Of a DNA stretch of 29,908 nt, positions 150 through 18,749 are shown in pieces. The position numbers and the translations under genes were made by a program. Numbering within the stretch: the first letter of the stretch is position 1; each line of letters opens with the position of its first letter. The notes beneath the pieces were generated by a model that saw only the letters and a list, made by a program, of their open reading frames with translations, made no database searches and was not told the DNA's origin. Source of the stretch: Escherichia coli (GTDB lineage Bacteria; Pseudomonadota; Gammaproteobacteria; Enterobacterales; Enterobacteriaceae); NCBI RefSeq assembly GCF_003334315.1, contig NZ_QOWR01000056.1; one strand, given 5' to 3'.

Positions 150-204
150 TGGAGCACCTCAAAAACACCATCATACACTAAATCAGTAAGTTGGCATCAT
201 CACC
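1..204 (-). mobile_element. IS1 insertion sequence, left end (IRL plus start of insA), partial; continues beyond the window start
   Basis: Reverse complement of 1..204 matches the IS1 left end from recall (GGTGATG[A/C]TGCCAACTTACTGATTTAGTGTATGATGGTGTTTTTGAGGTGCTCCAGTGGCTTCT...), with one mismatch in the terminal inverted repeat. The bcsE reading frame changes character exactly at position 204/205. Confidence 0.85.
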
Positions 205-711
205 AAAAAGTGAACGGTATTCCTCAAGCAACAATGAAAATTGTTTATCGTTATTATTTCCGGGATTAATTACCAAAAGCGAACAATGGTTTAACCTGCT
301 CCATTTATTCATTTTATCCAACCATGAGCGAAGCCGCTCGGCAGGAATGTTTTGCCATGCGTTATTTGCGCAAACAAGAATAAAAAGGTAATTATGGGGA
401 TCAATAGAACACTGCAAATCACGGGTCAAATAGTATAGACCTTTTTCATGATTTAGCATTGAAAATAATTTTATTTTTTCCGGCCCTTGAGAATCATCTA
501 ATTGAAAGATTTTCGCCGGATCGCTGTCCATGCTAATGACCGCGACGTGTGCGGTTTCAGCCTGGGATGCAATTGTTTGATTCGCCAGACTGATAGCATC
601 TTCATGGCGATCGACGTTAAACCACCAGACGCCGCCTGCTGGCATATGTCGCAGCTCATCCCATAATGATGAGATACCGATAGAGAATACAGGGTCCACA
701 ATGTCCCTCAT
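205..711 (-). pseudogene. bcsE: bcsE 5' fragment (codons 1-169 of a ~523-codon gene) truncated by the IS1 insertion
   Basis: ATG at 709..711 on the minus strand; translation MRDIVDPVFSIGISSLWDELRHMPAGGVWWFNVDRHEDAISL...EEYRSLF matches the BcsE N-terminus. The six-frame ORF 178..711 continues 8 codons into IS1 (GDDANLLI) and then stops. Confidence 0.8.
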
Positions 712-15021: not shown

Positions 15022-15109
15022 GCCCGCACTCCCTTCCCCGAGTGCGGGTGTTTGCGCATAATTGACCCCTGTGCCTGAACTTACCACCTGGGTGAGTTCA
15101 GGTTTATTT
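15022..15109 (+). terminator. Two tandem stem-loops downstream of dctA; the second is a strong intrinsic-terminator candidate
   Basis: Hairpin 1 at 15022..15049 (gcccgcactc / gagtgcgggt, 8-nt loop). Hairpin 2 at 15074..15102 (cctgaacttacc / ggtgagttcagg, about 12 bp) followed by tttattt. Confidence 0.5.
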
Positions 15110-15228: not shown

Positions 15229-16725
15229 ATGCAGGGCACAAAAATTCGACTTTTAGCGGGCGGTTTGCTGATGATGGCCACTGCTGGCTATGTGCAGGCA
15301 GATGCGCTCCAGCCTGATCCAGCATGGCAACAGGGGACGCTTTCCAACGGTTTACAGTGGCAAGTGCTGACCACCCCCCAGCGTCCCAGCGATCGTGTTG
15401 AAATTCGCCTGCTGGTTAATACCGGTTCGCTCGCCGAAAGTACACAACAGAGCGGTTACAGTCACGCCATCCCTCGTATTGCGCTAACGCAAAGCGGTGG
15501 CCTTGACGCAGCACAGGCGCGTTCATTGTGGCAGCAGGGGATCGACCCTAAACGCCCGATGCCGCCGGTAATTGTCTCTTATGACACCACGCTGTTTAAT
15601 CTGAGTTTGCCCAATAACCGTAACGATTTGCTGAAAGAAGCGCTCTCTTATCTGGCAAATGCCACTGGCAAATTGACCATCACACCAGAAACCATCAACC
15701 ACGCGCTGCAAAGTCAGGACATGGTGGCAACCTGGCCTGCCGATACTAAAGAGGGCTGGTGGCGCTATCGTCTGAAAGGGTCAACCTTGTTAGGTCACGA
15801 TCCTGCCGATCCGCTGAAACAACCCGTTGAAGCGGAAAAAATTAAAGATTTCTATCAGAAATGGTACACCCCGGATGCAATGACGCTACTGGTGGTGGGA
15901 AACGTGGATGCGCGCTCGGTTGTCGACCAAATAAACAAAACGTTTGGCGAACTGAAAGGCAAACGTGAAACGCCAGCTCCGGTGCCGACGCTTTCTCCGC
16001 TGCGTGCGGAAGCGGTGAGTATTATGACTGACGCGGTGCGTCAGGACCGGTTATCTATCATGTGGGATACGCCGTGGCAGCCGATTCGTGAATCAGCCGC
16101 ACTGCTGCGCTACTGGCGTGCGGACCTGGCCCGCGAGGCGCTGTTCTGGCATGTTCAGCAAGCGTTAAGCGCCAGTAACAGCAAAGACATCGGTCTTGGA
16201 TTTGACTGCCGTGTGCTGTATCTGCGTGCGCAGTGTGCCATCAACATCGAATCACCAAACGACAAGCTGAACAGCAACCTTAATCTGGTGGCGCGTGAAC
16301 TGGCGAAGGTTCGCGATAAAGGTCTGCCGGAAGAAGAGTTCAATGCGTTAGTGGCGCAAAAGAAACTGGAGCTGCAGAAACTGTTTGCCGCCTATGCACG
16401 AGCTGATACCGATATTCTGATGGGTCAGCGGATGCGTTCGTTGCAAAATCAGGTTGTCGATATCGCGCCGGAGCAATATCAGAAACTGCGGCAGGATTTC
16501 CTTAATAGCCTGACGGTAGAGATGTTAAATCAGGATCTGCGTCAACAGTTGTCGAATGATATGGCGTTAATACTGCTGCAGCCGAAAGGCGAGCCGGAAT
16601 TTAACATGAAAGCGTTGCAGGCGGTCTGGGATCAAATCATGGCCCCATCTACCGCCGCTGCGACCACCTCTGTCGCCACGGATGACGTACATCCTGAAGT
16701 GACGGATATTCCACCTGCACAGTAA
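15229..16725 (+). CDS. yhjJ: YhjJ, periplasmic M16-family (pitrilysin-like) protein, 498 aa
   Basis: ORF 15229..16725 with signal peptide MQGTKIRLLAGGLLMMATAGYVQA; identified from recall of K-12 YhjJ. No HxxEH zinc motif in the translation. Confidence 0.9.
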   Translation: MQGTKIRLLAGGLLMMATAGYVQADALQPDPAWQQGTLSNGLQWQVLTTPQRPSDRVEIRLLVNTGSLAESTQQSGYSHAIPRIALTQSGGLDAAQARSLWQQGIDPKRPMPPVIVSYDTTLFNLSLPNNRNDLLKEALSYLANATGKLTITPETINHALQSQDMVATWPADTKEGWWRYRLKGSTLLGHDPADPLKQPVEAEKIKDFYQKWYTPDAMTLLVVGNVDARSVVDQINKTFGELKGKRETPAPVPTLSPLRAEAVSIMTDAVRQDRLSIMWDTPWQPIRESAALLRYWRADLAREALFWHVQQALSASNSKDIGLGFDCRVLYLRAQCAINIESPNDKLNSNLNLVARELAKVRDKGLPEEEFNALVAQKKLELQKLFAAYARADTDILMGQRMRSLQNQVVDIAPEQYQKLRQDFLNSLTVEMLNQDLRQQLSNDMALILLQPKGEPEFNMKALQAVWDQIMAPSTAAATTSVATDDVHPEVTDIPPAQ

Positions 16726-16766: not shown

Positions 16767-16820
16767 GGATGAGCTGGATAGAGGGGTAACACTTTATCCA
16801 GCCTTTTGCATATGCTGCGT

Positions 16821-17750
16821 TTACGCTGGCATCGCCTCACGCGGGATAATCGCGCCGCGATACTGAATAACGGTACTTGCGGTCAGGTGCCCACGTTTCG
16901 CCGCGTCTTCCGCGCTGCCGCCTGTCAGACGTACCGCCAGATAACCGGCACTGAAAGAGTCGCCAGCTGCGGTGGTATCGATCACTTTTTCTTTCGGCAG
17001 TTTCACCGCCGGAACATCCACTAACCCTTCGCCAGCAATGGACACCAGGCAAGAATCCGCCCCGCGTTTCACCACCACTTCTTTCACGCCCGCGTTATGG
17101 GTGCGCGCAATGACGTCTTCCACCGGCTGTTGACCCCACAGCGCGTCTTCGTCGTCCAGCGTCAGGAAGGCGATATCCGTGCATTCCAGCATTTGTTGGT
17201 ACACCTGCTGTGTCTCTTCTTTGCTGGCCCACAGGCGCGGACGATAGTTATTGTCGAAAATCACTTTTCCGCCGTTGGCGCGGCATTCGCGCAGCAGGGA
17301 AAGCAGCTTTTCGCGGCTGGTCGGGCTTAAGATCGCCAGGCTAATCCCGCTCAGGTAGAGATAATCGAAATTCGCCAGCTCTTCGCAAATCGCCGCAGAC
17401 TGCTCACTCTCCAGCCAGAATTTGGCGGCGGCTTCGTTCCGCCAGTAGTAGAACGTACGCTCGCCGGTGCTGTCGGTTTCAATGTAGTAAAGGCCCGGCA
17501 GACGGTTTTCCATCCGTTGGGTCAGGGAAGTATCAACGTTCTCGCCGTGCCAGGCGTCCAGCATCTGCTGGCTAAAACTGTCCGTTCCCAGCGCCGTTAC
17601 GTAATGAACGGTTAATGCCGCAGGATCGACCTGACGGGCGATATAGACGGAAGTGTTCAGGGTATCGCCGCCGAAACCGCGCTTAACGTCCGCGCCTTTC
17701 TCGGAAAGCTCAATCATGCATTCGCCAATCACGGCAATCTTTTTGGACAT
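16821..17750 (-). CDS. kdgK: 2-dehydro-3-deoxygluconokinase KdgK (PfkB family), 309 aa
   Basis: ATG at 17748..17750 on the minus strand (MSKKIAVIGECMIELSEKG...), within the longer track ORF 16821..18098; length matches K-12 KdgK from recall. Confidence 0.9.
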   Translation of the reverse strand: MSKKIAVIGECMIELSEKGADVKRGFGGDTLNTSVYIARQVDPAALTVHYVTALGTDSFSQQMLDAWHGENVDTSLTQRMENRLPGLYYIETDSTGERTFYYWRNEAAAKFWLESEQSAAICEELANFDYLYLSGISLAILSPTSREKLLSLLRECRANGGKVIFDNNYRPRLWASKEETQQVYQQMLECTDIAFLTLDDEDALWGQQPVEDVIARTHNAGVKEVVVKRGADSCLVSIAGEGLVDVPAVKLPKEKVIDTTAAGDSFSAGYLAVRLTGGSAEDAAKRGHLTASTVIQYRGAIIPREAMPA

Positions 17751-17816
17751 AGTCGTGAACCTGATCTGTAAAAAATTAGCGTTAGTTTGCGCTGTGGTGG
17801 TTTGCTGGTCAACCAT

Positions 17817-17835
17817 ATTAAAACAGTGTTCCATT
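17817..17835. promoter_or_regulatory. Candidate KdgR operator upstream of kdgK
   Basis: attaaaacagtgttccatt matches the remembered KdgR box AATRAAAYRNYRTTTYATT at about 16 of 18 defined positions; 67-85 bp upstream of the kdgK ATG. Confidence 0.4.
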
Positions 17836-17906
17836 ATTTTTTTGAGCCAGAACGTATTCCTGAAAGATTCCGTTGTGGAGTGAGGAAATTTACCCCGGCC
17901 AGGCGG

Positions 17907-17933
17907 TAAAGTTCTGCCCTTACGCGCCGATAA
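17907..17933 (+). promoter_or_regulatory. Sigma28 (FliA) class 3 flagellar promoter for pdeH
   Basis: TAAAGTTC - 11 nt - GCCGATAA, essentially the sigma28 consensus (TAAAGTTT-N11-GCCGATAA), about 50 bp upstream of the pdeH ATG. Confidence 0.7.
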
Positions 17934-17981
17934 TCTTTGTCGAGTCCGGGCAGCATCACTTTTAAACACAGGACATCTTTG

Positions 17982-18749
17982 ATGATAAGGCAGGTTATCC
18001 AGCGAATAAGCAACCCTGAAGCAAGCATCGAGAGCTTGCAGGAACGGCGTTTTTGGTTGCAGTGTGAGCGTGCTTACACCTGGCAGCCGATCTATCAAAC
18101 ATGCGGGCGGTTAATGGCCGTGGAGCTATTAACGGTGGTCACGCATCCCTTGAACCCTTCGCAACGCCTGCCGCCGGATCGCTATTTTACTGAAATCACC
18201 GTCAGCCATCGGATGGAGGTTGTGAAAGAGCAGATTGATTTGCTGGCGCAAAAAGCCGACTTCTTTATAGAGCACGGCCTGCTGGCATCGGTCAATATTG
18301 ATGGCCCTACGCTCATCGCCCTGCGTCAGCAACCAAAAATCCTGCGCCAGATTGAGCGTCTTCCCTGGCTGCGTTTCGAACTGGTGGAGCATATCCGTCT
18401 GCCGAAAGATTCAACCTTTGCCTCGATGTGTGAATTTGGCCCGCTGTGGCTGGATGATTTTGGTACCGGGATGGCAAATTTCTCTGCGCTAAGTGAAGTG
18501 CGTTATGACTACATCAAAATCGCGCGAGAACTGTTTGTGATGCTGCGTCAGTCGCCGGAAGGACGCACACTCTTTTCTCAGCTTTTACATCTAATGAATC
18601 GCTATTGTCGCGGGGTGATTGTCGAGGGCGTAGAAACGCCGGAAGAGTGGCGTGATGTTCAGAACTCGCCCGCATTCGCCGCACAAGGCTGGTTTCTTTC
18701 ACGCCCGGCACCGATAGAAACGCTGAATACGGCGGTTCTGGCGCTATAA
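17982..18749 (+). CDS. pdeH: c-di-GMP phosphodiesterase PdeH (YhjH), EAL-only, 255 aa
   Basis: ATG at 17982 (MIRQVIQRISNPEASIESLQERRFWLQ...) inside track ORF 17937..18749; EAL-position motif ELL and DDFGTG motif visible. Confidence 0.9.
   Translation: MIRQVIQRISNPEASIESLQERRFWLQCERAYTWQPIYQTCGRLMAVELLTVVTHPLNPSQRLPPDRYFTEITVSHRMEVVKEQIDLLAQKADFFIEHGLLASVNIDGPTLIALRQQPKILRQIERLPWLRFELVEHIRLPKDSTFASMCEFGPLWLDDFGTGMANFSALSEVRYDYIKIARELFVMLRQSPEGRTLFSQLLHLMNRYCRGVIVEGVETPEEWRDVQNSPAFAAQGWFLSRPAPIETLNTAVLAL

Follow-up and report, generated by a model that had tools for sequence, protein, structure and literature searches.

Several proteins with an M16 fold, namely MPP alpha, the cytochrome bc1 core proteins 1 and 2, and the inactive M16B subunits, lack the zinc site and serve in binding or scaffolding. 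The closest described system to the locus studied here is that of the Escherichia coli YhjJ protein, which is devoid of the HxxEH motif of the family and has been renamed BipP (Park et al., PNAS 2025; PMC11789061). BipP attaches to NlpI, a lipoprotein adaptor, and by competition keeps the hydrolases MepS, MepH, and MltD from being delivered to the protease Prc; no proteolysis is involved. Overexpression of bipP raises the levels of these three hydrolases by stabilizing them and thereby allows a mepS mepM strain to overcome its growth defect; its deletion worsens the growth of endopeptidase mutants (mepS and mepS mepM). [quoted passage not shown]

Biochemically, wild-type BipP showed neither binding nor inhibition in vitro, and only a triple hyperactive mutant, BipP(N130K,N225K,Q284R), was active (PMC11789061). 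This variant slowed the NlpI-dependent but not the NlpI-independent degradation of proteins by Prc and pulled down NlpI, while Prc was pulled down only via NlpI; the hydrolase substrates compete with BipP for NlpI. In an AlphaFold model, R28 of NlpI sits in a pocket of BipP that consists of D30, A32, L47, Y389, A390, P414, and E415, and interface substitutions on either side (D30R, A32F, and A390D in BipP; R28D and I32Y in NlpI) abolish function. Low-resolution cryo-EM revealed extra density on NlpI at the predicted BipP site, and the structure of the complex is the AlphaFold model fitted into this density. The signal that activates wild-type BipP was not found by Park et al., and neither the metal content nor the peptidase activity of the protein is measured directly in the main text of their report (PMC11789061). 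The BipP mechanism rests on the study of a single laboratory; later papers, including a 2026 review, accept this account.

The gene analyzed here is located in a stretch of 29,908 nucleotides of E. coli DNA (RefSeq assembly GCF_003334315.1, contig NZ_QOWR01000056.1), referred to below as the window; the features of the locus are compiled in Table 1. The encoded protein is identical at all 498 of 498 positions (100%) to YhjJ of E. coli K-12 MG1655 (b3527, NP_417984.1), and 220 of 220 nucleotides upstream of the gene are the same in both strains. The open reading frame is bipP (yhjJ), the former YhjJ of K-12. Nothing in the protein differs from the K-12 BipP studied by Park et al. (PMC11789061); the strain differs from K-12 elsewhere in the window, by an IS1 element that appears to interrupt bcsE. 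The dctA-yhjJ-kdgK locus is common to the window and K-12: bipP is flanked by dctA on one side and by the convergently oriented kdgK on the other, with the bcs cellulose operon and pdeK/hmsP located upstream. Of 5426 complete E. coli genomes, 5423 contain a DNA match to yhjJ of at least 95% identity, and in many of them the identity is 100%. The N-terminus of BipP, a periplasmic protein (PMC11789061), reads as a basic start followed by a hydrophobic core and a VQA cleavage-type site.

Table 1. Features of the bipP (yhjJ) locus; coordinates refer to the window.
Feature	Position	Strand	Remark
bipP (yhjJ, b3527) coding sequence	15229..16725	+	ATG-to-stop ORF, 498 codons plus stop
Candidate sigma-E promoter: weak -35 TGACATT, 15-nt spacer, -10 TCTAA	15121..15147	+	consensus scan, inferred only
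Probable Sec signal peptide, residues 1-24 (MQGTKIRLLAGGLLMMATAGYVQA / DALQ)	15229..15300	+	read from sequence
NlpI pocket, N-terminal part: D30, A32, Q34 (within LQPDPAWQQG)	15316..15330	+	
HxxEH remnant H79-A-I-P82-R83	15463..15477	+	four alignments
Segment matching the E-x6-E helix, residues 155-169, both Glu absent	15691..15735	+	
Cysteine pair C327...C336, probable periplasmic disulfide (inferred)	16207..16236	+	clade-specific
NlpI-pocket residues Y389-A390	16393..16398	+	
NlpI-pocket residues P414-E415	16468..16473	+	
Variable, probably disordered C-terminal tail, residues 476-498	16654..16722	+	pLDDT <50; unalignable across clade
Terminator-like hairpin between convergent bipP and kdgK	16773..16802	+	

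Database names have not followed the published function. RefSeq lists the product as 'M16 family metallopeptidase' and the K-12 record as 'peptidase M16 family protein YhjJ'; the name bipP has not been adopted, and an NCBIfam scan yielded no BipP-specific model, only weak sub-threshold matches to YfmF and YfmH. The term 'metallopeptidase' implies an activity that the BipP sequence does not support, and the RefSeq name is still spread to thousands of genomes. A 2024 preprint counts YhjJ among candidate periplasmic proteases (bioRxiv 10.1101/2024.12.25.630354), and at least one infection-biology paper has based a hypothesis on the cleavage of host proteins on an assumed protease activity of Salmonella YhjJ. 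The original prediction, made from the DNA sequence, had called the function of YhjJ poorly defined, a statement that has been outdated since January 2025 (PMC11789061). Since both the missing motif and its functional consequence, a non-catalytic binding role, were already published in 2025, they are not new and our analysis carries no weight as a discovery; it has some practical value.

The same prediction held that YhjJ lacks HxxEH anywhere and reads GYSHAIPRI where the motif is expected, and both statements proved correct. A regular-expression scan of the whole protein, which contains five His residues in all, found no HxxEH, HExxH, HxxxH, or Hxx[ED]H. GYSHAIPRI corresponds to residues 76-84, and four independent alignments (HMMER pairwise, MAFFT, hhalign profile-profile, and a 42-sequence alignment) place HAIPR under the family HxxEH. 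Relative to PqqL (PDB 6OFT), HMMER aligned GYSHAIPRIAL of YhjJ with GVAHFVEHMMF, and MAFFT alignment with K-12 PqqL (HFVEH; H80/E83/H84) and PtrA (HYLEH; H88/E91/H92) put H79, P82, and R83 into the motif columns. When the profile of the YhjJ clade was compared by hhalign with that of double-length active M16 relatives, which are mostly PqqL-like, HAIPR again fell under the motif (probability 100%, E 2.9e-64), and the clade profile covered only the N-terminal half of these longer proteins. In the 42-sequence alignment, H, E, and H occupy the motif columns of all 30 other double-length relatives and of P0131, a Plesiomonas protein discussed below. Compared with the family motif, YhjJ has kept the first His (H79), while the catalytic Glu is replaced by P82 and the second His ligand by R83.

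M16 enzymes take their third zinc ligand from an E-x6-E pair located further downstream, of which the second Glu binds the metal; in the ERERNAVNAE segment of PtrA, this pair is E162 and E169. Among the active relatives in the 42-sequence alignment, the first Glu is present in 29 of 31 proteins and the second in all 31. The corresponding segment of YhjJ does not have a unique alignment: the 42-sequence alignment matches the first Glu to A159 and places the second within a deletion of four residues, the pairwise alignments (HMMER and MAFFT) give Q161/T168, and hhalign gives A159/Q163. In none of these versions is either position occupied by a clade-conserved His or acidic residue. H79 is kept in E. 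coli, and E155, H158, and D164 are nearby in the sequence; an alternative metal site formed by H79 with any one of these residues was rejected as improbable because none of them is conserved in the clade. Neither an equivalent of HxxEH nor an alternative metal site was found by alignment at the catalytic position. By these comparisons, BipP no longer has the catalytic Glu or two of the three zinc ligands, and it lacks the entire second half of the enzyme. According to the hhalign comparison and the structural model, BipP possesses only two domains, and the closed catalytic chamber, for which four domains or two half-size subunits are used, would be absent.

These data bear on the possibility that YhjJ is an active zinc peptidase with a non-canonical metal site, as one might expect from the RefSeq and K-12 annotations as a metallopeptidase or peptidase family protein and from the retention of H79 in E. 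coli. Sudhakar et al. (Autophagy 2019; PMC6693458) proposed that YhjJ from Salmonella is a secreted zinc protease that is predicted to cleave host autophagy (ATG) proteins at dibasic sites, and their report describes an LC3B pull-down of His-YhjJ and an altered LC3 recruitment in a sifA yhjJ mutant. In the passages considered here, cleavage is predicted from the Pfam domain, and no protease assay is shown (PMC6693458). Salmonella YhjJ (P0067) likewise carries the degenerate HAIPR and no HxxEH, and the proposed cleavage of ATG proteins is therefore unlikely, so that LC3 binding and the infection phenotypes would have to be explained in some other way. In the E. coli protein, Pro stands in place of the catalytic Glu, Arg in place of the second His, and the distal Glu is deleted or substituted. 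H79 becomes R, W, S, F, V, or T in other clade members, a drift that argues against a cryptic alternative site using this residue. Moreover, BipP leaves NlpI and Prc levels unchanged and acts non-proteolytically (PMC11789061). An active peptidase is already largely refuted by the sequence, and we consider it very improbable.

A non-catalytic M16 homologue that functions as a binding partner, as put forward in the original prediction, is borne out by the published experiments, in which BipP binds NlpI without proteolysis (PMC11789061). A Pfam search recovered a weak match to Peptidase_M16 (residues 46-158; E 1.1e-5, 25.8 bits) and a strong one to Peptidase_M16_C (residues 200-377; E 5.6e-24). 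The two homologous domains seen by Pfam, hhalign (probability 100%), and Foldseek make BipP a member of the M16 family by fold. An AlphaFold2 model of the window protein has a mean pLDDT of 86, with values below 50, and hence predicted disorder, only over residues 1-26 (the probable signal peptide) and 476-498 (the tail). Foldseek matched more than 50 M16 structures to this model with a probability of 1.00, in the order 3GO9 (TM 0.86/0.94), the first half of PqqL, FusC, and then the M16B subunits, MPP, and the bc1 core proteins. The comparison of a predicted structure with PqqL that had been suggested at the outset was made at the level of the whole fold, where the match is to the first half of PqqL. 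The best hit, 3GO9 from Yersinia pestis, is a BipP orthologue (E 5e-199, about 61% identity) whose motif position, HLLPR, is likewise degenerate; it was deposited in 2009 by structural genomics as a 'predicted insulinase family protease' without a functional study.

PqqL of E. coli and FusC of Pectobacterium are the best non-orthologous matches to BipP in both structure and sequence. PqqL and FusC are periplasmic, as is reported for BipP (PMC11789061), and share with it the fold of the first two domains; a DPxW-type N-terminus is common to BipP and many PqqL-like proteins. PqqL and FusC, however, keep HxxEH, the E-x6-E pair, and the second half that closes the chamber, none of which is found in BipP. 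MPP alpha, the bc1 core proteins, and the inactive M16B subunits, all of them fold matches of BipP in Foldseek, act in a complex that contains, or is descended from, an M16 partner, whereas BipP acts on a TPR lipoprotein that is unrelated to M16 proteins and serves a serine protease as adaptor.

Heterodimeric M16B peptidases, for which MPP alpha/beta, the Sphingomonas A1 pair, and the PA0371-PA0372 pair are models, are typically encoded by adjacent genes. Given its half-size, two-domain format and its Foldseek matches to 3ami, 4nnz, and 7v4y (E about 1e-19 to 1e-21), YhjJ might be the non-catalytic subunit of such an enzyme and close a clamshell with an active half-size partner. No M16 gene lies next to bipP in E. 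coli, however, or next to its relatives at three other loci (two distant orthologues and the Plesiomonas sister), and the closest relatives, by sequence and by tree, are double-length PqqL-like proteins. PqqL and PtrA are the only other E. coli proteins with M16 domains that Park et al. set beside BipP (PMC11789061). Both PqqL (931 amino acids) and PtrA (962 amino acids) are self-contained enzymes with four domains. We regard a role of YhjJ as an M16B subunit as highly unlikely. That yhjJ is a decaying relic without a function of its own, as the loss of the active site and the C-terminal half and the Pfam score of only 25.8 bits for the M16 N-domain might suggest, is ruled out by its conservation and by the phenotypes on record: an intact copy is found in 5423 of 5426 E. 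coli genomes, full-length orthologues can be followed to identities as low as 32% with 40 columns still invariant, deletion of the gene worsens the growth of mepS and mepS mepM mutants (PMC11789061), and it is under sigma-E regulation (PMC2731931, PMC4577112).

To return to BipP as a non-catalytic binding protein, all eleven residues named by Park et al. (eight pocket residues plus N130, N225, and Q284; PMC11789061) are present under the same numbers in the window protein, the pocket set being D30, A32, Q34, L47, Y389, A390, P414, and E415. Members of the clade are 32-45% identical to E. coli BipP and share 40 invariant columns. The pocket is conserved throughout the clade (n = 11): no member departs from D30, L47, A390, or E415, and A32, Q34, and Y389 each occur in 10 of 11 proteins; conservation at positions 389 and 390 does not extend to the 30 double-length relatives. 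In contrast, the former catalytic positions vary, with H, R, W, S, F, V, or T at position 79, P, S, A, T, F, or I at position 82, and R, Q, or K at position 83. The comparison shows purifying selection on the pocket residues and not on the former active site, the pattern to be expected if binding of the adaptor, rather than a metal site, is under selection. As a separate observation, each of the substitutions of the hyperactive mutant (N130K, N225K, and Q284R) adds a positive charge, and Lys at position 225 (window 15901-15903) is the natural residue in P0130 and P0132, the two proteins of the clade that diverge most.

Taken together, bipP very probably encodes a catalytically dead M16 homologue that blocks the NlpI-Prc system by binding. 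BipP would be a periplasmic pseudo-peptidase consisting of the first two domains, i.e., half of the clamshell, of a PqqL-type M16 metallopeptidase. [quoted passage not shown] With NlpI occupied by BipP, the hydrolases would therefore accumulate when DD-endopeptidase activity is limiting, and the outcome would be a homeostatic control of cell-wall expansion. NlpI binding, substrate competition, and the in vivo phenotypes are parts of this account derived from the literature (PMC11789061); our analysis adds the identity with K-12 BipP, the M16 fold, the selection pattern described above, and the finding that the first His is the sole catalytic determinant left.

Park et al. drew analogies between BipP and two other types of envelope regulators (PMC11789061). 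EnvC and NlpD, with degenerate LytM (M23) domains, are like BipP in using a dead metallopeptidase fold to regulate envelope enzymes; their fold is unrelated to that of BipP, and they activate amidases, whereas BipP inhibits an adaptor. In the YejM-LapB-FtsH system, whose folds are also unrelated, an anti-adaptor likewise tunes the proteolysis of an envelope-biogenesis enzyme; YejM blocks the contact between adaptor and protease, while BipP blocks that between adaptor and substrate (PMC11789061).

HMMER, run exhaustively against 1.84 billion cluster representatives, yielded about nine full-length clusters (50% identity) above 245 bits, followed by a sharp fall to about 120 bits, where PqqL-like proteins of about 930 amino acids appear. 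The BipP family is a small clade of half-length proteins. HxxEH is absent from all 118 full-length close homologues, the Salmonella protein (P0067, HAIPR) among them. In the list of the best 150 matches, it occurs within the first 200 residues of all 73 other long relatives and in none of the nine long relatives without a second half (eight full-length clade representatives and the 418-amino-acid P0124); with 73 of 73 set against 0 of 9, its absence from the BipP clade is not due to chance. Two cysteines that are nine residues apart, C327 and C336, occur without exception in the 11 clade members and also in P0131, and the alignment shows no equivalents of them in PqqL, PtrA, and the 30 other relatives. 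This suggests that they may form a clade-specific periplasmic disulfide; the main text of Park et al. makes no mention of this pair (PMC11789061).

P0131 (cluster of WP_435132562.1) is a 943-amino-acid M16 protein from Plesiomonas shigelloides whose first half is 36% identical to BipP. It shares with the BipP clade seven of the eight NlpI-pocket residues, both cysteines, and the WW and WDxPW signatures; unlike BipP, it possesses an intact HxxEH (GYAHFLEHMAF), an intact E-x6-E pair (SAERGVILGES), and a complete second half, and it is therefore presumably an active peptidase. In a neighbour-joining tree (Poisson distances, 200 bootstraps), a simple distance method that is to be read as indicative, P0131 is the sister of the short clade in 200 of 200 bootstraps, and the short clade is monophyletic in 200 of 200. 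We infer that the ancestor of BipP was probably an active PqqL-like peptidase of double length, from which the second half and the catalytic residues were lost, an origin that is not stated in the main text of Park et al. (PMC11789061). The Plesiomonas sister enzyme offers a natural comparison for how a peptidase became an anti-adaptor. Its gene (P0131/P0272; P. shigelloides CP195150.1) adjoins an OmpA-like gene and yigI-pldA-recQ, not the E. coli yhjJ context, and neither this gene nor those of two distant orthologues have nlpI, prc, mep, or a second M16 gene nearby. The neighborhoods of these three loci are unrelated, and the gene context is thus uninformative.

Five residues, W178, R181, D280, W283, and R333, are invariant in the clade and adjoin the hyperactive sites N225 and Q284. 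We mention with considerable reserve a scenario in which BipP descends from an NlpI-docked, active PqqL-like peptidase of the Plesiomonas kind and its vestigial cleft now senses low DD-endopeptidase activity; as a whole it is rather unlikely. It is no less doubtful that the binding of the adaptor would have preceded the loss of catalysis and that the signal in the cleft might be, e.g., a peptidoglycan-derived peptide. The five residues named above might line this vestigial substrate cleft, an assignment that is equally speculative.

With respect to its expression, yhjJ is reported to belong to the sigma-E regulon of E. coli, with an eightfold induction (PMC2731931), and to be a high-affinity sigma-E ChIP site in Salmonella (PMC4577112). 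The TCTAA element of the candidate sigma-E promoter ends 81 nucleotides before the bipP start codon; no sigma-70-type promoter was found by scanning the region upstream of bipP, and an Rfam scan of the whole window returned zero matches. The spacer between dctA and bipP contains two tandem GC-rich hairpins (window 15023-15048 and 15073-15103), of which one has the sequence CCCGCACTC...GAGTGCGGG followed by TGTTTG, and the other consists of a 13-bp stem followed by TTATTT. Both are probably terminators of dctA, and bipP is therefore probably transcribed from its own promoter.

Two further observations concern other parts of the window. On the minus strand, a 425-amino-acid open reading frame with a TTG start was listed at 16821-18098, whereas the annotated kdgK gene comprises only 930 nucleotides; the longer frame is therefore an upstream over-extension and not a gene feature. 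The window starts within an IS1 element, with 100% identity between its bases 1-201 and copies of IS1A and IS1B, which are found at a median of 10 copies per genome; in other E. coli chromosomes, the match to the window does not begin until base 202. The bcsE (yhjS) frame (178-711, minus strand) enters the IS1 terminal repeat and stops after 177 amino acids (...FGDDANLLI*). The IS1 junction and the truncated frame suggest that in this strain IS1 has interrupted bcsE, which encodes a cellulose regulator.
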